From an uncultured virus (IMG/VR IMGVR_UViG_3300037067_014663) (taxonomy: Duplodnaviria; Heunggongvirae; Uroviricota; Caudoviricetes), in IMG/VR virus record IMGVR_UViG_3300037067_014663: DNA of 64,000 nt; one strand, 5' to 3'. A model generated the notes under the pieces. It did no database searches. It saw nothing but the letters and a program-made list of their open reading frames with translations, and had not been told where the DNA came from. Positions 3,443 through 62,649 of this stretch are shown here, one piece after another. The position numbers and the translations under genes were made by a program. How positions within the stretch are numbered: the first letter of the stretch is position 1; the number at the start of each line of letters is the position of its first letter.

Positions 3443-6400
3443 TTAATATAAAGAATTTTTATTGTTCCATTTCTTTAATACCCCAACCAATTCATTCTCC
3501 CCAATTTTAAATACAACCTCTCCACTCCAATCAGATTGCCTTTCCATACTATTTAATTTTTGTGGGGGGATTACTTTTTCGCCCGAAGTTAAAAATGCAG
3601 GATACGTATCATTAGGATACCCAGGTGGGACAGTTCCTCCTTCTGCAAATTTAGGAACAACAGCTTTGAATAATGCTGTTGTAGCAGCCGCAGCCGCAGC
3701 ACCCGCTAAAATTGCACCCCACCACGTTTTTGATTTTTTAACTGCATTTGCAACATTCGCTGCAACTGCTTCTGCAATATATGTGGCAATCATTGCTATA
3801 ACAGCTTCCCTTAAAGCATTTACAAATCCATTAATACTCAATATACTTCCTTGAATTGCAGAAGTGTATAAATCTTTCATTTCTTTACTTGCACGGGTGG
3901 CCAATGTTTCCTTTTTTTCAACTTCCATAAGTTGTTGTAAAACTTCAATATATTTTTTTGCTTTTTCTGCATTTGCTACAGCATTCAATGGATCGAGTAA
4001 AGATAAATTATATAATTCCTCTAAAGCAGATTTATAGGATTCAATTTTTGCTTGATTCATATCAAACGCATCTCCCATAAAAGAACTTTTATATGCAATT
4101 AATCCTAATTCTTTTTGTAAATTTTCACCAACTAATGCTGTTTTATATCCTGTTTCATTAAATTTTCCTAAATATTGTTCTGCTGATCGAGATGCAGCAG
4201 CAGAATTCATCATGTTCTTTACAAATTCTGAATTAACTACATTTAAACTTCTTATTTTTACCATCAACATTTGAACATTAGAATTTAATGGTGTTACACC
4301 CTTCTCTCCTAATTTTTCTAATGTGTCCATATATAACTTTGCCTTTTCCTCAGAAGTAGTAAAAGAAGAACCCATCAATTGATTCATTAAAATCATTGAT
4401 TTTTCCTTTTCACGAAACTCATTCATAATCTTACTAATTTCTTTCATTGATTCTGGATCAAAAGTAGGTGATGTTGTTGTTTTATTTTTTGCTGCCTCTT
4501 TTTGAATGGGAACTAATTTTTCGTACGCGTGTAAAATAGCATTAATCTGATCTACTACACCTCCTTTTTCAGCTTTTATTTCAACAAAATCCTCAAAAGC
4601 TTTTCTAAAATCATCAAAACTATATTTTAAATACCCAGTACGTTTTGACATTTTTTCTACATAATCATTCCAAATACCTAACATTACTTCTGTGGTATTT
4701 CCCATTTTATTTGCTATATCTGCTCCTTCAAATAACCTAGTTATAAATTCCCCTAATCTATCACCACCGTATGTTTGTGTAAATCCTGATATAAAATCAG
4801 AAAATGAAGAACCAAATGCCTTTGAAATTGATTCAATTTCTTTTTCTAAAGCTTCTCGGTATGACTTTATAGCAACATTTGCAACCATAGCATTTGTAGC
4901 TTGTTTTTGTGCTTGTTCAATATCTTGCAATGTTGATTTTTCAGTAAGTAAATTCTTTAAATAAGGACCATATCTATCATTAATTATTTTTATGGTGTCT
5001 GCTCGCTGTTGGGTACTAATGTTTGTCTGTTTTAATCTATTAAAAACATCATTTAATTTAAAAATCTCATCACTCAATTGATTATTTACATTTTTTTGAA
5101 TTTTACTAAATGCATCTGTAGTAGAATTCCATTTAGCAAAAGCTGTAATAGCAGCAATAATCCCAACAGCAACTAATCCCCAAATATTTGTACTGAGAAC
5201 TGTACGAAGGTATTTAAACATATTTAATGCAACACCCACAACATTTATTAAATTCCCCATTGTTTTTGCTAAAACACTAATAACAATAGATAAAGGACCG
5301 ATTACAGCTAATAGTCCAGCAGTATAAAGAATTAACTGTCTTTGAACATCATTTAAATTTGTATACCAACTAACCAATCCACGTACAGTGTTACCCATAC
5401 TCTCAAGAATAGGAATAATGTCGCTTTTCATAGACATTCCTAATTCAATTAAACCAACTTTTACATTGGCCATTGCTTGATTGTATTTAAAATCAATTGT
5501 ATTTGTTACAGATTGGAATGCTTTATTCATATCCCCGGAAGATTTATTTACCCTATCAAATAAACCAATATTTTCTTTATATCGATCACCTAACAGAGAC
5601 AAAGCGTGTGTTAATGCCCGAACATTTGGGAAAGCATCACTCATAACAGTAATACCATACTTTTTAGTTAAATCATTAAGAATCCCTAATGTATTTAATA
5701 ATCCTTTTGATTGTAAATTATTCCGAAGAAAATCAAAAGTTATTCCCATACTTTGTAATGATGCTTCTGCTTCCTTTGATGGTTTTAATATTTCAAACAG
5801 AACTTGTCGCAATCCTGTTACTGTTTCATTAACATTCTGTCCAGTTAATGAAACAGCAGCAATGGAAGCGGCAACTTGATCAAAGGAAACACCAAGCAAG
5901 GAAGCAATAGGAATAACATCACCTAATTGGGTTGCATACATTGACGCTTCTCCTTTACCTTCACGAACTGCCGCAGTCAATACATCTAATGCTCGTGTTG
6001 CTGTCAGTCCTGAATTCTTATATGCATTCATAGCAGAAGTAACCAAATCAGCAATTGCTTGGGTTTCCCCTAAACCCGCAGCCGCACCTTTTGCAGATTG
6101 TTTTACAATATCTAATGCTTCTGCCCCTTTAAAGCCTGATGATGTTACAAAATATAAAGCTTCAGCTAATTCCTTCGGTGGTCTGGCAATCTGTGGGGAC
6201 AGAGACAAAATATCCCTGCTCCACTGATTTACCTGATTTTGAGAAACACCAACTAAACCAACAATATGTTGCATTGCAATTTCAAAATCTTTTGCAGACT
6301 TTAAAATAGCTCCTCCGGCCAATGCCATGGGAATAGTTAAATACATAGTAGCAGAACGGCCAAAATTTTGCATCCTTGCCCCTACAGCAGCTAATGATGT

Positions 6401-35518: not shown

Positions 35519-35845
35519 ATGAAAACTTATAAAACCGAATGGACAGATAACGACTTTAATAAAATCAACAAGGCAATTCAAAAATACTTTGGCGGTAAAA
35601 CCTTAATAAATCGTAGAAATGAAAATGTTTATTTCCCTGGCAACTTCTATGAGATTGAAAAAATTCTTGGTTTACCCTATACTTCGACTTCTATGTGCCC
35701 TATGATGTCATTGGACTGTAATGTGAATATCTATGCAGATGATTCAAAAAAATATCATTACAGTTACGTTGTTTTAAATGAAGTAAAAGACGTTATTTTA
35801 GTCGCTCGGGATAACGAAGAAAACGAAATTTACTTTAAGGTTTAA
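35519..35845 (+). CDS. Early hypothetical protein
   Basis: 108-aa ORF with an AT-rich start context. Confidence 0.7.
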   Translation: MKTYKTEWTDNDFNKINKAIQKYFGGKTLINRRNENVYFPGNFYEIEKILGLPYTSTSMCPMMSLDCNVNIYADDSKKYHYSYVVLNEVKDVILVARDNEENEIYFKV

Positions 35846-35913
35846 CCAGTCTAAAGTCCATTAAATTGTGATAGCTCCCTTAAACGGGAGTAAACAAACT
35901 TAAACTTACAACA

Positions 35914-36732
35914 ATGAAAACATGGTTACCAATATTTCCAGGATTTTACGGTACTTGGTATGAACCAAACGAAACCGATGAATTTAATTATATTAATGAG
36001 CAAAGAGAATCAATCCATATTGCGCCATTACCTTTTGAAGCTATAAAATGGGATTATGCCGCATACTACAATGAAGTTTCTAAAAATGCCTGTAACTACA
36101 TTGAAAACGTATTAGAAAACTTTGTTACTGCCATTAAATTTGAAGAAATACGTTCTCCAAAGGAATACAATTTTTCAAATGATGCAATAAACATTGAAGT
36201 TGAATTATCTGAAGAAAATATTATTGCAATTAAAACTTTTCTTTTTGATAATATTGAAAACTTCAAAAAGCACATTTCTAAAACTTACACAAGTTACGAC
36301 GGGTTTTTATCTTCTTACAGTAACGACGCAATTGACTGGTTAGACTATATTGACACTAATTTAGAACATAAACACAAATTAGGTTCAATATTACAATTCA
36401 TTTGCTATAAATTAAAAGACAATATCGACGAAATTATGCCCGAATTTACTTTAATGGATGTTTGTTTACAAGCTTCAAATTTTGATGAGTGCACAATATT
36501 TAACTATTGTCCTAACTGTAAGGAATTTTTTGACCCAGCTAACACAAAAGGAAATATTTGCAGTGATTGTTTAGAACAATCTATATTAGACTATAATATT
36601 ATCGTTTGTGCTCATTGCGGCCAAGAAATCACAAATAAATGGGCAAAAAGAGAATTTCAACACAAATTAAAGCATGGTTTTATTAAACCTACTGAAATTT
36701 TTTGTGATTTACACGAATTAATTTTAGCATAA
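35914..36732 (+). CDS. Hypothetical protein with C-terminal Cys-rich (Zn-binding) region
   Basis: PIFPGFY..SPKEYNFSND..TSYDGF; CPNC, CSDC, CAHC. Confidence 0.75.
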   Translation: MKTWLPIFPGFYGTWYEPNETDEFNYINEQRESIHIAPLPFEAIKWDYAAYYNEVSKNACNYIENVLENFVTAIKFEEIRSPKEYNFSNDAINIEVELSEENIIAIKTFLFDNIENFKKHISKTYTSYDGFLSSYSNDAIDWLDYIDTNLEHKHKLGSILQFICYKLKDNIDEIMPEFTLMDVCLQASNFDECTIFNYCPNCKEFFDPANTKGNICSDCLEQSILDYNIIVCAHCGQEITNKWAKREFQHKLKHGFIKPTEIFCDLHELILA

Positions 36733-40708: not shown

Positions 40709-40865
40709 TAAATTTAAACTTTAAAAATACAAACTATGTTAGTACTATTAAAAATATTTATCTGTGTAATACTTTTAATCGGGATAGTTACATTTATTGT
40801 AGCTATTATTGAAGTAATTAAATCCATTAAAGAAGATAAAGAAATATAAATTAAAAACTTATTTT

Positions 40866-41516
40866 ATGAAAAAATCATTCAGAAAACATGAAATCAATTA
40901 CGGTTGCTATAACGAAAAACAGTTTAATCAATTATGGTCGAAAACAAGAAGTATAAACATTTTACAAATTCTTGAAAGTCATCTCATACCTATCAAAGAC
41001 AAACGTTGGTTTGTGTGGAATAATTGCAATTTAACATTAGATCAAAATAAAAAATTGTCTTTAAAATTAGCATGGATTGTTCTACCTATCTACGAAAATA
41101 AATACCCTAAAGACAATCAAGTAAAAGATTGTTTGCAAGCAACAGAAGATTTTTATGCTGGCAAAATATCACTGGATGTTTTAAGAAAAAAAAGAAAGGC
41201 TGCTGCTTATGCTGCTTATGCTGCTTATGCTGCTTATGCTGCTGCTGATGCTGCTGCTTATGCTGCTGCTGATGCTGCTGCTGATGCTGCTGCTTATGCT
41301 GCTGCTGATGCTGCTTATGCTGCTTATGCTGCTGCTTATGCTGCTGCTTATGCTGCTGCTTATGCTGCTGCTGATGCTGCTGCTGATGCTGCTGCTTATG
41401 CTGCTGCTGATGCTGCTGATGCTGCTGATGCTGCTGATGCTGCTGATGCTGCTGATGCCAAACAACCAACATATTCTCAATTAATTCAACAAACATTGAT
41501 CGATTTTGTAAAATAA
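40866..41516 (+). CDS. Hypothetical protein with Ala/Tyr/Asp low-complexity tract
   Basis: Globular N-terminus (VLPIYENKYPKD..CLQA) followed by about 87 codons of AAY/AAD repeats. Confidence 0.8.
   Translation: MKKSFRKHEINYGCYNEKQFNQLWSKTRSINILQILESHLIPIKDKRWFVWNNCNLTLDQNKKLSLKLAWIVLPIYENKYPKDNQVKDCLQATEDFYAGKISLDVLRKKRKAAAYAAYAAYAAYAAADAAAYAAADAAADAAAYAAADAAYAAYAAAYAAAYAAAYAAADAAADAAAYAAADAADAADAADAADAADAKQPTYSQLIQQTLIDFVK
41199..41459 (+). repeat. Trinucleotide-based tandem array of (GCT)n interrupted by TAT/GAT
   Basis: Seen directly in the sequence. Confidence 0.95.
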
Positions 41517-41721
41517 AATATTATGAAGATTGAAACAACCACAAAAAGTGTTGTATTTTTTGCAGAAAATGAAACAGACAACAATCTTTTACTTACTCTT
41601 TTTAAAAACAGTTTTTCAAGTTTAAATAACAAGAAAATAAAAGATTCCTTAGTACAATACTCTTGGAAACCAGACAAACTCAAACTGTCTATCAAAATAT
41701 TAACAAATTAAAACTTACTTT

Positions 41722-42391: not shown

Positions 42392-43302
42392 TGAATCTTA
42401 TTTCCCTTTTTCAGGACTATGGGGTTGTCTATTATGCCGAAGGTTACAAATATTGCCGTCCCGGATGGATAAATGTTGATTGTCCTTTTTGTACTGCAAC
42501 AAACCATCCGGGACCGCACCTCGGTTTTGAATTAGATAACCCACATTGTTCCTGTTGGGCTTGTGGTTACCACCCGCTCAATTTAGCCATTGCAAAACTT
42601 CTCAATGTAAACGAAAAAGAAGTTCCTGCAATACTTACAAATTATGGTTCTTTACTAAAAGTTTCAACCGATGAAATTGCAGCTAAAATCAAATTAAAAC
42701 CACACAAATTGCCCTCCGGCACAATGCCTTTACAATCTAATCATAGAAAATATTTAGAAGGAAGAAATTTTGATCCTGATGAATTAATAAAAATGTGGGA
42801 ATTGCTTGGAACAGGGCCTATTAGCAAACTTGATAACATTGATTACAATTTTCGTATTATTATTCCTTTCATTTGGAACAAAGAACAGGTTTCTTTTGAC
42901 AGCCGGGATATTACCGGAAAGCAAATGGCTAAATACAAAGCATGCCCTAAAGAACGGGAATTAATACCGCACAAAGAAATATTATTCGGTAGGCCGGATT
43001 TGTGGAAAGAAACCGGAATTATTGTTGAAGGTCCTTTTGATGTTTTCCGGTTTGGGAAATATGCTGCGGCAACTTCAGGGATTGCATTTACACCAAAACA
43101 AGTTAGGGTTATTGCCAAAACATTTAAACGTGTTGGTGTGTGCTTTGATGGACAGGAAAAGCAAGCTTTAGAACAAGCAAATAAACTTGTAGCTGAACTT
43201 AAATTTCGTGGTGTAGATGCATTCAGGATTGATATTATTGGGGACCCTGGGGCTATGGAACAAAAAGAAGCGGATTATATTGTTAAACAAGTAATACATT
43301 AA
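42391..43302 (+). CDS. DNA primase (Zn finger plus TOPRIM)
   Basis: CPFC..H..CSCWACG; RIIIP; IVEGPFD; CFDG; DPG. Confidence 0.88.
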   Translation: MNLISLFQDYGVVYYAEGYKYCRPGWINVDCPFCTATNHPGPHLGFELDNPHCSCWACGYHPLNLAIAKLLNVNEKEVPAILTNYGSLLKVSTDEIAAKIKLKPHKLPSGTMPLQSNHRKYLEGRNFDPDELIKMWELLGTGPISKLDNIDYNFRIIIPFIWNKEQVSFDSRDITGKQMAKYKACPKERELIPHKEILFGRPDLWKETGIIVEGPFDVFRFGKYAAATSGIAFTPKQVRVIAKTFKRVGVCFDGQEKQALEQANKLVAELKFRGVDAFRIDIIGDPGAMEQKEADYIVKQVIH

Positions 43303-43306
43303 AATT

Positions 43307-43816
43307 ATGGGCACTAAAATTTGTACAAAATGTGGTAAGAAAAAAGAATTATCGGAATTTTCATTCTGTTGTAATAGAAACAATTTTAGATCCAAATGTA
43401 AACAATGTTATCAAGAATATAACGAAAGGTATCGTCAAAAAAATAAAGAAAAAATTAAAGAAAAAAATAAAATATACACATTTGAAAATAAAAGAAAAAT
43501 TAAAGAACAAAAGAAAAGATATCGTCAAAAAAATAAAGAAAAAATTAAAAAACAAAGTAAAAAATATTACATTAAAAATAAAGAAAAAATTAAAGAACAA
43601 AATAAAGAACAAAAGAAAAGATATCGTCAAAAAAATAAAGAAAAAATTAAAAAACAAAAGAAAATACGTCATCAAAAAGATAAAGAAAATTTAACATCCG
43701 CATATATTGCAAATATATTCCATACATCAATAAAAAATCTAAAACAATATCCACCAGAATTAATTGAATTAAAACGAATACAATTAAAAGTTGCTCGTGT
43801 AATTAAAAATAAATAA
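43307..43816 (+). CDS. Zn-finger protein with RYRQKNKEKIK repeats
   Basis: KICTKCG..CKQC, three basic repeats, C-terminal PELIELKR. Confidence 0.7.
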   Translation: MGTKICTKCGKKKELSEFSFCCNRNNFRSKCKQCYQEYNERYRQKNKEKIKEKNKIYTFENKRKIKEQKKRYRQKNKEKIKKQSKKYYIKNKEKIKEQNKEQKKRYRQKNKEKIKKQKKIRHQKDKENLTSAYIANIFHTSIKNLKQYPPELIELKRIQLKVARVIKNK

Positions 43817-59237: not shown

Positions 59238-59594
59238 ATGCAATCTAAAACCAAATGCTCAACTCCTTATTGTCGAAATGATCGAGTAAAAGGAAGAACA
59301 AAGTGTTCTAAATGCAATATGCGTTGGCTAAAAGAACACCATCTAGACACATACACTTTTAATATACTTCGGTGTAATGCAAAAAGAAGAGGAAAAATTT
59401 TTAATATAACGCTTAATCAATTTCGTAAATTTTGTAAGGAAACTAATTATCTTGAATTAAAAGGCAAAAATGCAAGTAGTGCTTCAATTGATTGTAAAAT
59501 ACCAGAGAAAGGATATAGTTATGAAAATATGCAGATTTTAACCCTTGCAGAAAATACGATTAAAGAAAACAAAAGAAGGAAATGTCCTTTTTAA
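59238..59594 (+). CDS. Zn-binding, HNH-like endonuclease-related protein
   Basis: CSTPYC..CSKC; NAKRRG; SIDCKIPEKGY..NMQILTLAEN. Confidence 0.6.
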   Translation: MQSKTKCSTPYCRNDRVKGRTKCSKCNMRWLKEHHLDTYTFNILRCNAKRRGKIFNITLNQFRKFCKETNYLELKGKNASSASIDCKIPEKGYSYENMQILTLAENTIKENKRRKCPF

Positions 59595-59616
59595 TTCAAA
59601 AAATTTTTGTATAATA
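59594..59616 (+). promoter_or_regulatory. Putative phage-specific promoter motif, copy 2
   Basis: ATTCAAAAAATTTTTGTATAATA, 30 nt before ATG 59647. Confidence 0.55.
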
Positions 59617-59646
59617 TATTATAACAAATATTAAAATTTAAAGATT

Positions 59647-60270
59647 ATGGAAAAAATGACAATTCACAGAGGACTTGCAGAATTAAAATTAATTGATGCA
59701 AGAATTGAAAAAGGCATTGAAGAAACAACACTCACTGGGGTAAAGCAAAAAGGTAAAAAGGTGAATAATATCATTGAAGAAACCGAATTTACCAATAACG
59801 CACAATCTGGTTTTGACAGTGTTTTATCACTAATTAAACGTAAAAATTTAATCAAATGTGCTATTGTAGAAAAGAATGCAAAAACAAGAGTTGCCATTGG
59901 TGAAAATGAGATGACTATTGCAGATGCTATCAATTTTAAAACTTTAATTAAATATAAAAAACAATTTATTGCTAATTTGCACAAAAAGCATTTGACTGTT
60001 TTAGCTTGCCTTGAAAAAAACAATGCTATTGCAGATCAAAATTTGCAAGCAGTTCTTGTAGCTACATTTGGTAAGGCAGTAAAGACACAGGATACTGATT
60101 TGGAAGCAGTACGTAAGCCATTTATGGATTCTAATGAATGGCATTTGGTAGATCCATTGAAAATAATTGATAAATTAACTGTTTTAGAAAAAGAAGTATT
60201 AACTTTTGAAACTGAAGTTGATGCTGCTTTATCTGAAATAAACGCAGTAACGTTTATTGAATTTGAATAA
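59647..60270 (+). CDS. Long helical-hairpin protein (reminiscent of the DIP1984-like family)
   Basis: MTIHRGLAELKLIDARIEK..EMTIADAI..LVDPL..FETEVDAALSEINAVTFIE; family assignment from memory of the pattern. Confidence 0.7.
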   Translation: MEKMTIHRGLAELKLIDARIEKGIEETTLTGVKQKGKKVNNIIEETEFTNNAQSGFDSVLSLIKRKNLIKCAIVEKNAKTRVAIGENEMTIADAINFKTLIKYKKQFIANLHKKHLTVLACLEKNNAIADQNLQAVLVATFGKAVKTQDTDLEAVRKPFMDSNEWHLVDPLKIIDKLTVLEKEVLTFETEVDAALSEINAVTFIEFE

Positions 60271-60284
60271 TTAAAAAATAAAGT

Positions 60285-60539
60285 GACTAATTGTACGAAA
60301 AACACAAACATAACCTCCCGCTTGAGGATTAGAAAAGCAACCATGTGCTAAATGGATAAAATAAACAACAGAAAAGTTCAAAGATTAAAATTCAAAGCAT
60401 AAAGGTTAAATTTTAAAGTTCTTTATAATTAAAGTTTAAATTACAAAATGTAAAGGTCTTTTAAATCCAGTGAAAAGTTTTATAGGTGGTGGTTATTTGT
60501 CCTCGTGTTTTGTATCTGGCTGTACAATTAGTCCTTTTT
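60285..60539 (+). ncRNA. Putative structured RNA with 7-nt periodic AAA-N4 repeats
   Basis: 12-bp perfect closing stem, nested stems, 11 heptamers and a 3' U-tract (see findings). Confidence 0.7.
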
Positions 60540-60627
60540 AAAATATAGAATTATGGAGTAACGGGTGTCCTTTAACTGGAGAACTCCTTCCAAAAGGAAC
60601 TGTCATTAAACTTAAAGTAAAATAATT

Positions 60628-61149
60628 ATGAGCTACGAAAAAAACATTGAAATCAATTTAAATTATGCAAAAGATGTAGAAATCGATTGTGACCAATTAG
60701 ATTTGGAATTGTTGGAACAGGCAGCATTATTTATGAAATATGGTATGAATGCTGCCAGACAACGAAAATATTTAGATATAGTAAAAGAAAAATTGGATTT
60801 GGTGAAAGCTGAATTGGATCAAAAAATTAGAACATTTCCATCAAATTACAAAATTGACAAAGTTACAGAAGCTGTTGTTAGTTCTACAATTATTCAACAG
60901 GATGAATTTAAAGAAGCAAATAAAGAATATATAGAGGCAAAGTATACACTGGATGTTGCACAAGTTGCTGTTTCCGCAATGAACCAACGCAAAAGCGTTT
61001 TGGAGGATCTCGTTAAACTTCATGGGATGCAATATTTTGCTGGACCAAGAATACCAAGAGATCTCCGTCAAAAGAGAGAAGAACGGGAAGCACAACAAAA
61101 AGAAACAGGAGAAAAAGTAGGTGCATCACTCAAAAGAAAAACCAGATGA
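60628..61149 (+). CDS. UvsY-like recombination mediator (putative)
   Basis: Helical; EQAALFMKY..KVTEAVV..AMNQRKSVL; next to gp32-like and RecA-like genes. Confidence 0.55.
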   Translation: MSYEKNIEINLNYAKDVEIDCDQLDLELLEQAALFMKYGMNAARQRKYLDIVKEKLDLVKAELDQKIRTFPSNYKIDKVTEAVVSSTIIQQDEFKEANKEYIEAKYTLDVAQVAVSAMNQRKSVLEDLVKLHGMQYFAGPRIPRDLRQKREEREAQQKETGEKVGASLKRKTR

Positions 61150-61290: not shown

Positions 61291-62649
61291 ATGAGCAAAA
61301 ACAATCAAAGAACAACTAATTTTAGTGATAAAATTAGAAATCAAGTTGATGATCACAAAGCACAGGATAGCAAAAGTTATGGCTATCTTAAACTACCTAA
61401 AGGCATTCAAGTGTATTCCGTAGATATCCCAAAAAAGTTGAATCTGTTAAAAGTTAAATTTGACATCATCCCATATCTTATAAGTGATGCAAAACATATT
61501 GATGCTAAATTAGGTGCAGAAATTGGAGAACCTTGGTGGAGAAGGCCGATTCGGATTCACAAACATATTGGTGTTGATGATGATTCTGTAATTTGTTTAT
61601 CAACTATTGGAAAGAAATGTCCTATTTGTGAATATCAGAAAGAATTAATTGCAAATAAGGCAAGCAAAGAAGATATAAAAGCATTAAATTATTCCAAACG
61701 TAGTATTTACCTTGTTTGGCCGAAGGATGATGGGGACTTTGATGATGAAGTTCATATTTTTGACATTTCTGATTTCTGTTTTTATGATCCACTTATGGTT
61801 GATGCAGAAGAAATGAACGAATACAATTTTCCTTCATTATCTGATGGAAAGACTTTACAAGTTCGGTTTGAAAAAGAAACATTTGCCGGAAATGAATTTC
61901 CAAAAGCAACTCGCATAAGTTTCATAGAAAGAGACGAACAGTATAAAGAATCTATTTTAGAAGAAGTTCCTTGCCTTGATGGGATTTTGAACATCCTTTC
62001 TTATGATGAACTAAATGCAAAATTTCTTGCTATAGGTGATGAAGATACAGAAGAAAAAAGAAAAGTCAAAGATGATGATGAGAAACCTCGTAGCAGGAAA
62101 TCAGTTTTAACAAAAAGCAAAGAAAAAGAAGAACTGGAAATAACTTGGGCACAAATTGATGGTAAATCTAATAGAAGTTTGTGTTCTTTAATTATTCAGG
62201 AAAATATTGATCTTAATCCTGACAAATTTGATGATGATAACGAACTTAAAATAGCTATAGCCGAGAAATTAGGTATTAAAGTTCCTACTGCAAAACCAAA
62301 GAAAGAGGAAGAAGAAACTGAAAAAGTTACCTGGGAATCTCTTACAAAATTGGAAGGACGTAGATTGTCACGTGTTGTCAAAATGAATAATTTAGATATT
62401 ACGATCAGTGATTTTGAAGATGATGATCCCGGACTGCGTGAAGCCATTGCAAAAGAAATGGATATTGAAATTCCTAAAGCAAAAAAAGAAACTGAGGGCA
62501 AAAAAAGAAATAGTAAGGAATCTTCCAAAGAAAATCCATGCCCAAACGGGTTTGTGTATGGAAAGGACAATGATAAATACAATGAATGTGAAGAATGTGT
62601 TGTTTGGAAAGCATGTCTCACTGAGAATGAAAAACTAAAAGGAAAATAA
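61291..62649 (+). CDS. gp32-like single-stranded DNA-binding protein with long acidic C-terminus
   Basis: FDIIPY..IHKHIG..ICLSTIGKKCPICE..DGKTLQVRF. Confidence 0.75.
   Translation: MSKNNQRTTNFSDKIRNQVDDHKAQDSKSYGYLKLPKGIQVYSVDIPKKLNLLKVKFDIIPYLISDAKHIDAKLGAEIGEPWWRRPIRIHKHIGVDDDSVICLSTIGKKCPICEYQKELIANKASKEDIKALNYSKRSIYLVWPKDDGDFDDEVHIFDISDFCFYDPLMVDAEEMNEYNFPSLSDGKTLQVRFEKETFAGNEFPKATRISFIERDEQYKESILEEVPCLDGILNILSYDELNAKFLAIGDEDTEEKRKVKDDDEKPRSRKSVLTKSKEKEELEITWAQIDGKSNRSLCSLIIQENIDLNPDKFDDDNELKIAIAEKLGIKVPTAKPKKEEEETEKVTWESLTKLEGRRLSRVVKMNNLDITISDFEDDDPGLREAIAKEMDIEIPKAKKETEGKKRNSKESSKENPCPNGFVYGKDNDKYNECEECVVWKACLTENEKLKGK

Follow-up and report, generated by a model that had tools for sequence, protein, structure and literature searches.

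Do a phage gene for a small helical protein and the non-coding interval that follows it make up one unit, and what kind of RNA would the interval specify? The question arises at positions 59594 to 60539 of a 64,000-nucleotide (nt) stretch of DNA, hereafter the window, from an uncultured virus of the Caudoviricetes (IMG/VR record IMGVR_UViG_3300037067_014663). A sequence-only reading had pointed here to a 207-amino acid (aa) open reading frame (ORF) and, closely downstream, to an ORF-free element closed by complementary ends and displaying eleven 7-nt repeats, and had put them forward as a candidate ribonucleoprotein system. These observations are borne out. In the ORF list of the window the 207-aa ORF occupies 59647-60270 (+). 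A gap of 14 nt separates its stop codon from GACTAATTGTAC (60285-60296), which is complementary to GTACAATTAGTC (60522-60533) at 12 of 12 pairs, and a T-run (60535-60539) lies just 3′ of the latter. No ORF of at least 40 aa is listed inside 60345-60627. Folded on its own, the RNA gives z = -2.01, with 6 of 200 shuffles equally stable. Single-sequence folding by itself is thus modest evidence for a structured RNA, and the case rests on comparison with relatives. From that comparison we conclude that window positions 59647-60539 constitute a two-part phage module: the gene for the 207-aa protein and a 250-nt non-coding RNA on the same strand.

Gene and RNA were followed in both directions. Eighty viral-contig loci were fetched with an alignment (A3) of 33 homologues of the protein; two of them (L024 and L083) stop at a contig edge and are not assessable for the RNA, leaving 78. 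The closing stem, P1, was scored at 14 positions flanking the invariant 5′ GAAA(A) and 3′ GGCU. Directly after the gene, 11 to 14 of these 14 positions pair in 75 of the 78 assessable loci, and the paired sequences differ completely among clades. The other three, which score low (L021, L031 and L048), have the 3′ domain of the RNA, at 123, 108 and 71 bits against a covariance model. The element expected downstream of homologous genes is therefore found in 78 of the 80 loci, the remaining two running off their contigs. For the reverse test, 80 loci were fetched with a degenerate pattern describing the heptamer register alone. The downstream AAAWCC...GGCUG motif is present in 57, and in 56 of these the protein ORF immediately precedes the RNA, in the same orientation. 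A further six carry the ORF and fail the regular expression for the 3′ motif; all four of those examined with the model have the 3′ domain. In total the gene lies directly upstream in 62 of the 80 heptamer-retrieved loci, and 17 that have neither motif nor ORF look like chance or unrelated repeats. Protein identities across linked loci go down to about 31%.

The module is found well beyond viral contigs. All 10 assessable genome-bin loci have the RNA (L302, with only 31 residues at an edge, was left out of this set); the bins are assigned to Chitinophagaceae, Cytophagales, Saprospiraceae, Tenacibaculum, Saccharibacteria, Ignavibacteria and, in one case, Gammaproteobacteria. The RNA is likewise present in 8 of 8 phage isolates sampled: T5, Spc35, Clostridium phage D-1873, the Erwinia jumbo phage Special G, Escherichia coli phage AV124, Lactococcus phage PMBT69, Pseudomonas phage Pyxpy02 and Bacillus phage KLEB27-3. 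The range of the module thus extends from Bacteroidota-type phages to T5, Vequintavirinae, jumbo Erwinia phages and Firmicutes phages. In T5 the RNA corresponds to the complement of 43146-43490 in NC_005859.1 (locus L205, 7147-7491). This is a 442-nt gap between T5.085 and T5.084 in which no RNA feature is annotated, only a promoter at the far end. The "rnaX" stable RNA of the T5 record (40848-41566) is a separate element of unknown function. Scanning with the model gave one copy per genome in T5, AV124, PMBT69 and KLEB27-3; the model misses Special G, whose 3′ domain has insertions. Across the family the RNA measures about 235-490 nt, and in most of 43 representatives it starts 4-47 nt past the stop codon of the gene. 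At the nucleotide level, blastn of the region against 50,697 phage records returned no match because the DNA is too diverged. One further locus (L005), picked up in an exact 20-mer scan of viral contigs, was discarded as a chance match in a promoter region.

Genes on either side of the pair vary and include thymidylate synthase, HNH nucleases, endolysins, methyltransferases and an SSB. An RNA-ligase-like gene adjoins it in L023. As the flanking genes change from phage to phage, gene and RNA behave, and travel, as a unit. A 3′-domain match of 154.9 bits was also found in G005, a complete 64.6-kilobase (kb) genome with no homologue of the protein. This copy has neither the 5′ strand of the closing stem nor the 5′ core strands, and with the 5′ strand of P1 gone it looks like a rearranged remnant of the module. 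The remnant (L152, 1186-1700, −, on contig IMGVR_UViG_3300027792_000002) has two permuted tRNA-like modules beside its intact 3′ domain.

The fold was derived from two alignments, A4 with 16 close sequences and A5 with 43 divergent, non-redundant ones. Its elements, in window coordinates, are as follows:

59647-60270 (+): gene for a mostly helical 207-aa protein (PHROG 1491; T5 homologue T5.085)
60285-60533 (+): structured RNA, bounded by the outermost bases of closing stem P1, identified by covariation
60285-96 / 60522-33 (+): closing stem P1; 94.3% paired and 11 of 12 pairs covarying in A4, 97.1% and 11 of 12 in A5
60296-60301 (+): near-invariant C-GAAAA junction after the 5′ strand of P1
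60299-60305 / 60505-60511 (+): P2, AAAACAC/GUGUUUU; 95.5% paired, 4 of 7 covarying (A4)
60310-60315 / 60491-60496 (+): P4, AUAACC/GGUUAU; 96.8% paired, 6 of 6 covarying (A4)
60316-60318 / 60326-60328 (+): S1, UCC/GGA; 93.3% paired, 2 of 3 covarying (A4)
60320-60323 / 60335-60338 (+): P3, GCUU/AAGC; 81.5% paired, 4 of 4 covarying (A4)
60341-60344 / 60352-60355 (+): hairpin H4, CCAU/AUGG with loop GUGCUAA; 88.7% paired, 4 of 4 covarying (A4)
60356-60372 (+): variable site, empty in the window, defined by alignments with relatives
60373-60421 (+): heptamer block A, seven repeats of A-A-R-G-N-U-Y
60431-60458 (+): heptamer block B, four repeats
60467-60471 / 60515-60519 (+): Px, CCAGU/UCUGG; 77.5% paired, 3 of 5 covarying in A4, 89.3% and 3 covarying in A5
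60484-60487 / 60500-60503 (+): hairpin Py, AGGU/UCCU; 95.3% paired, 4 of 4 covarying (A4)
60518-60539 (+): near-invariant GGCUG (G, G, C and G invariant, U nearly so), the 3′ strand of P1 (60522-60533) and a U-run (60535-60539)

The complete model comprises 53 pairs. In A4, 89.8% of cells are paired, as against 34-47% after a shift of the 3′ partners by 1-3 columns; changes on both sides occur at 39 of the 53 pairs, and none of 500 shuffles reaches the observed values. P1, the closing stem recognized from the window alone, is upheld. Its G.U cells number 55 versus 6 A.C cells, which shows the fold to belong to the + strand RNA. The two nested stems that had been proposed as AAAACAC/GTGTTTT and ATAACC/GGTTAT stand as P2 and P4. 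The third, GGATT/AATCC, gives way to better-supported partners: GGA (60326-60328) pairs with UCC in S1, and CC (60467-60468) with GG (60518-60519) in the 5-bp covarying helix Px. In A5 the paired fraction of P2 is 65.7%, the MAFFT alignment being poorer in distant clades. For P4, most of the 43 sequences have their best helix at an equivalent position (5′ position 27-29; 36-45 nt from the 3′ end) even though the sequences themselves are unrelated. Two further pairings are unproven: a linker hairpin, CUUU-AUAAUU-AAAG (60421-60434, +), that would join the heptamer blocks (81.3% paired, no covariation), and Pz, AAAC (60306-09) with GUUU (60477-80), which is weak (79.7% paired, one covarying pair).

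Three sets of pairings cross. S1 and P3 make a compact H-type pseudoknot (60316-60338); the 3′ strand of P4 sits in the loop of hairpin Py, forming another; and Px, whose 5′ strand falls within the invariant AAAUCC motif, crosses P2 and P4. As a result, about 75 nt at the 5′ end and about 75 nt at the 3′ end of the RNA interlock into a core that holds out a central stretch, within which no pairing is supported. A covariance model of the 3′ domain has its only strong match in the window at 60368-60535 (139.6 bits). A weak match at 4182-4292 (−; 22.2 bits, E 0.0036) is probably due to chance in A-rich sequence. The 3′ end of the RNA in the window's clade is likely the U-run after P1; a U/T-run at this place occurs in 16 of the 43 representatives, the window included. 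A simple terminator scan called none in the window, as the loop enclosed by P1, 225 nt, is too long for it. At the other end of the module, the promoter-like motif noted at 59594 is not above chance: the site (59595-59622) matches the consensus at 9 of 12 positions, and the region has 9 such sites versus 8.8 +/- 2.8 in shuffles.

The heptamers occupy the stretch held out by the core. Their arrangement is as first described, seven repeats, a 9-nt gap and four more repeats, and the lag-7 identity over 60373-60458 is 0.56, a value reached by none of 10,000 shuffles. In block A, 49 nt long, the 43 sequences show not a single insertion or deletion. The consensus pooled from its heptamers is A1 (100%), A2 (94%), R3 (94%), G4 (75%), N5, U6 (91%) and Y7 (78%). 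The individual heptamers differ among themselves, yet each holds its own column across phages. These data support the view that the register is under selection and did not arise by slippage, as had been surmised from the window. Block B comprises four repeats in the clade of the window; distant clades have a fifth. Measured from the array to the end, the 3′ domain spans 164-180 nt in 34 of the 43 sequences. A blind all-against-all column scan of the 3′ domain, crude and noisy as it is, recovered Px as the only stacked covarying helix and nothing within the array, which is therefore probably displayed unpaired. The possibility of a reading frame through the array, standard or quadruplet, was set aside: there are stops in every frame (TAA occurs in all of them), and the frames of the window are not kept in L012.

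Between hairpin H4 and the array, most close relatives carry an insertion at the variable site, in the form of a tRNA-like module that is circularly permuted. It begins with the variable region and the T arm, followed by acceptor 3′ strand (with CCA in some cases), short loop, acceptor 5′ strand, D arm and return stem. Examples are L016 (1907-2031) and L019 (about 1900-2010), both of which encode CCA after the acceptor 3′ strand; others are found in L007-L023 and L288. Two modules, in L015 and L019, retain an anticodon arm, with Leu anticodons GAG and UAG. Acting on the permuted modules, RNase P and a 3′ nuclease would leave the RNA nicked, its two pieces kept together by helices of the core. 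In a gut-phage clade the RNA contains an ordinary tRNA (Tyr, Gly or others) instead; ARAGORN places tRNA-Tyr or tRNA-Gly within the RNA of L052, L060 and L078. The same program found no tRNA and no transfer-messenger RNA (tmRNA) in the window. In 62 of 80 loci tRNA genes lie within 6 kb, all co-oriented, and the module is usually placed within a tRNA gene cluster. The embedded tRNAs or tRNA mimics, together with the location in tRNA clusters, shift the likely biology towards tRNA or RNA metabolism. In 13 of the 80 loci (L229-L231, L236-L238, L240-L244, L246 and L279) the tRNA gene that comes next after the RNA, about 360-650 nt past the gene stop, is for tRNA-Leu (UAA or CAA); many of these loci are close relatives, so the counts are not independent.

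The permuted modules bear on how the RNA relates to known ones. In excerpts of Chen 2014 (PMC4201824), YrlA is described as having GNCGAA(N0-1)G near its 5′ end and a tRNA-like domain of the same order as the relatives' modules. As in YrlA (RF02553, the partner of Ro60/Rsr), and as far as those excerpts go, the 5′ and 3′ ends of our RNA form a closing stem with conserved C-G-A-A just inside, and the relatives' tRNA-like domain consists of variable region, T arm, capped acceptor stem and D arm. The YrlA model matches modules in 7 of 8 loci at 27.4-48.2 bits (E 4e-8 to 0.04), none reaching its gathering score of 69. A further link to the YrlA field is that RtcB stands beside the pair in one locus (L014). 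The differences are substantial. The window RNA gives no YrlA match at E up to 10 and has no tRNA-like domain, its variable site being empty. The RNA is 2-4 times longer than YrlA, has three crossing pairings and carries a heptamer array, of which Y RNAs have none. Its partner gene encodes a 207-aa helical protein, and Ro60/TROVE (PF05731) is found in none of five phage records (T5, Special G and three viral contigs, two of them 100% complete), with positive controls in 2 genomes.

Likeness to two-piece (circularly permuted) tmRNA lies in the pseudoknots and in the order of the relatives' modules, in which the T arm and acceptor 3′ strand, at times with an encoded CCA, precede the acceptor 5′ strand. 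Unlike two-piece tmRNA, the modules have a full D arm. Unlike tmRNA in general, neither window nor relatives give an ARAGORN tmRNA, RF00023 scores at most 13.6 bits versus a gathering score of 47, and there is no tag frame. A 74-aa gene annotated smpB lies upstream of the pair in Pyxpy02 (L291, 512-736); it was considered and rejected as SmpB, having no Pfam match at E up to 0.01.

Searches for a description of this RNA agree with the early impression that it belongs to no described family. Rfam 15, at gathering scores over the window, gives no match to it. At E up to 10 over 60200-60650 only SprD appears, with 15 bits versus a gathering score of 100, which is chance level. In relatives, neither the 18 loci searched at gathering scores nor the 8 searched at E up to 1 show GOLLD or ROOL. 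Literature searches found no description of the RNA, the viral RNA catalogue of PMC10690425 being covered in part only. This catalogue lists about 10,000 candidate viral structured RNAs; it may hold pieces of this one, and five of our contig identifiers are absent from the 6 supplementary files searched. Portions of a Kayvirus transcriptome (PMC9241854) mention unnamed long RNAs near tRNA genes in phage K. On balance, we rate the pair as a new kind of phage RNA-protein module with kinship to Y RNAs at the level of the module.

What can be said of the protein? It matches phrog_1491 over its whole length (E 5.3e-57; residues 1-207 on profile positions 2-210 of 211). The database label of this PHROG, "tail fiber protein", is probably wrong, because the gene sits among early, replication and tRNA genes and because the fold is a helical bundle. 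The T5 homologue, T5.085, is an early-region gene with tRNA genes, an exonuclease gene and RNase H around it, and the context is the same in Spc35. Pfam finds no family in the protein, and NCBIfam and PADLOC scans gave nothing meaningful. A large protein collection holds 484 homologues, none with a Pfam domain; among longer or fused forms, one of 399 aa is also without a domain. By tblastn the gene is present in 695 phage records, distributed by host as Salmonella 282, Escherichia 138, Pseudomonas 58, Bacillus 33, Klebsiella 32, Erwinia 26, Lactococcus 22, Aeromonas 15, and others. In the Lactococcus phages, alignment of the protein is confined to its N-terminal half. The AF2 model (pLDDT 87.9) consists mostly of long helices. 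A sequence profile search of PDB gave no matches, and Foldseek against PDB no match below E 1e-3. Structural matches in BFVD are uncharacterised phage proteins only; in the ESM Atlas they are unnamed clusters, the nearest named families being DUF6847 (0.87) and DUF7873 (0.84). Prediction of a 4-copy complex scored 0.49, one control scoring 0.39.

The TRAP target comprises 11 triplet repeats and that of HutP has NAG triplets 7 nt apart. Like these, our array presents a short core (A-A-R-G) at a fixed 7-nt spacing on a variable strand, with 11 repeats in the window's clade. The analogy with TRAP drawn from the window does not extend to the protein, which is helical and, by Pfam and by its model, has no TrpBP or HutP domain. 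The RNA also differs, in that the array belongs to a large folded RNA placed after the gene and not to a terminator-switching leader, and the repeats number 11 or 12. Type III toxin-antitoxin systems of the ToxIN kind have an upstream array of ~36-nt antitoxin repeats and an endoribonuclease toxin. Here the repeats are of 7 nt, lie downstream of the gene and are part of a large fold. An antitoxin-like role, also suggested at first, finds no support, as no toxin or defence family in PADLOC matches the protein.

The reciprocal linkage of gene and RNA, the conserved fold and the register under selection fit a candidate ribonucleoprotein. We put at about one half the probability that the RNA and the neighbouring protein form a dedicated ribonucleoprotein in which the array is a periodic binding platform, binding of the RNA by the protein being predicted. 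The finer proposal of one subunit per heptamer is held with less confidence than that. In such a scheme the RNA would be co-transcribed with the upstream gene and, in the window's clade, would end at P1 and the U-run. The folded core would be the specific anchor of the particle, and the array would line up copies of the neighbouring protein (or, less likely, of a host factor), one per 7 nt. The optional tRNA-like module might tie the particle to tRNA-handling enzymes during infection, by analogy with the role of Y RNAs for Ro60.

Several observations weigh against this interpretation. The repeat total is 11 or 12, the latter in distant clades, so that a fixed-size ring is not implied. Arrays of the T5 type are less regular, and that of Lactococcus phage PMBT69 keeps the 7-nt period with a different consensus, A-U-A-N-U-U-Y. 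These variations qualify the original ribonucleoprotein proposal, whose core, a structured RNA reciprocally linked to the gene, is otherwise upheld. No known RNA-binding domain is found in the protein with Pfam or NCBIfam, and its sole notable structural neighbour, 3kdq, comes from Corynebacterium and is itself of unknown function (Z 12.1, rmsd 6.7 over 151 residues). Adjacency of gene and RNA could reflect co-transcription alone. In KLEB27-3, three small annotated ORFs lie between the two. Finally, the sequencing runs found to contain the stretch are DNA metagenomes only, with no RNA run among them, and the RNA's transcription and ends are for this reason inferred. The KLEB27-3 RNA itself (L305, OM634661.1, about 117640-118010, −) lies ~1.2 kb downstream of the gene, has its 12-bp closing stem intact and is the only non-adjacent case seen.

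The RNA might instead act alone, as an "ornate" RNA of the GOLLD and ROOL sort, through self-assembly or catalysis, with the heptamers making contacts and the gene as a passenger or an unrelated partner. We consider this unlikely, though it draws on real resemblances. GOLLD and ROOL are presented in the parts of Weinberg 2017 (PMC5737381) consulted as large structured RNAs found near tRNAs and in prophages, with an average of 581 nt for ROOL. Compared with that account, the present RNA is also large, complex and pseudoknotted, with invariant nucleotides, and it is found in phages, near tRNA genes and in tRNA clusters, where embedded tRNAs are tolerated. Its distance from the gene in KLEB27-3 and the 3′-domain copy kept by G005 without the protein point the same way. 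Yet the G005 copy has lost its 5′ core strands, and the linkage is near-absolute in both directions to about 31% protein identity and no other neighbour is constant. Rfam shows no match to GOLLD or ROOL, in sequence or in structure. The RNA is moreover smaller (about 235-490 nt versus the ROOL average in that account) and, unlike either, it has an obligatory neighbouring protein gene and a periodic heptamer array.

Somewhat more doubtful is the notion, raised in outline from the window, that the array serves as a decoy or sponge with many binding sites for a host factor (an A/U-rich single-strand binder, a nuclease or a reader of tRNA loops), the protein serving only to fold or protect the RNA. 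Read as N-U-Y-A-A-R-G, the heptamer resembles the C-U-Y-A-A-A-A anticodon loop of phage tRNA-Leu (UAA/CAA): the consensus has U and a purine at the equivalents of U33 and R37, and A-A at those of A35 and A36 of tRNA-Leu (YAA). This resemblance is short, however, and positions 32 and 38 misfit; the heptamers also have no stems and so are not structural mimics of the loop. The location of the module within tRNA clusters, the Leu anticodons of the two permuted modules that keep an anticodon arm and the 13 loci in which a tRNA-Leu comes first would suit a decoy, although the last are not independent counts. As the hosts are Bacteroidota, Proteobacteria and Firmicutes, the target would have to be universal.

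A fuller picture, combining the preferred ribonucleoprotein with this resemblance, can be sketched as speculation, and we hold it to be improbable as a whole. The RNA would be a clamp, distantly related to Y RNAs but dispensing with Ro60, that carries a ruler of 11-12 U-turn-like heptads resembling anticodon loops and often a tRNA mimic. The protein would coat the ruler with one subunit per heptad, and the particle would capture or divert a universal host activity that handles or cleaves tRNA.

Slightly less probable again is that the RNA serves the mRNA of the protein itself as a cis-acting 3′ element, whether autoregulatory operator or stabiliser. The operator of phage T4 gene 32 combines a pseudoknot with an unstructured A/U-rich run that is bound cooperatively, and the pseudoknotted core and single-stranded periodic run of our RNA could be likened to such operators. 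The short distance from the stop codon in most of the 43 representatives and the U-run end in 16 of them would agree with an element of this type. It lies, however, 3′ of the gene, away from the ribosome-binding site; a stabiliser needs far less than a fold of about 250-490 nt that includes embedded tRNAs; and in KLEB27-3 three ORFs intervene. In many clades, furthermore, tRNAs follow directly, and their processing would release the RNA.

A DNA-level element (a replication origin, a packaging site, or iterons, which typically consist of short periodic repeats) or a slippage repeat has next to no probability, despite the replication genes (PolA, RecA/UvsX-like) in the window neighbourhood of the module, given that the excess of G.U over A.C in P1 marks one transcribed strand, that long-range pairings and pseudoknots are kept by covariation, that the orientation is always that of the gene and the tRNAs, and that distinct heptamers keep their own columns across phages, contrary to slippage.

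In phage T5, under study for more than 60 years, and in hundreds of its sequenced relatives, a highly structured RNA that comes with a dedicated gene for an uncharacterised protein has gone without annotation. To our knowledge, large conserved RNAs with multiple pseudoknots are rare in bacteria and phages, and earlier ones pointed to unusual biochemistry. For a strictly periodic heptamer array held by a pseudoknotted core, we found no described counterpart. The optional tRNA mimic of the Y RNA type connects the module to the poorly understood field of Y RNAs and RNA repair, and a phage system in E. coli K-12 offers a way to probe the role of such modules. On the practical side, the covariance model can now be used to annotate the RNA, and the label of PHROG 1491 probably needs correction.

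Two other features of the window deserve mention. A 452-aa ORF (61291-62649, +), two genes downstream of the RNA and located between the module and the RecA/UvsX-like gene, has a C-x2-C motif and an acidic, lysine-rich repetitive tail; it belongs to no family in Pfam, NCBIfam or PADLOC, and PHROGs gives a single weak match (phrog_34306). Elsewhere, a type-P3 twister ribozyme (RF03154) is matched at 35839-35906 (+) with 42.6 bits, above the gathering score of 39.9 (E 1e-5). It lies in a 68-nt gap between two ORFs on the same strand, 35519-35845 and 35914-36732.

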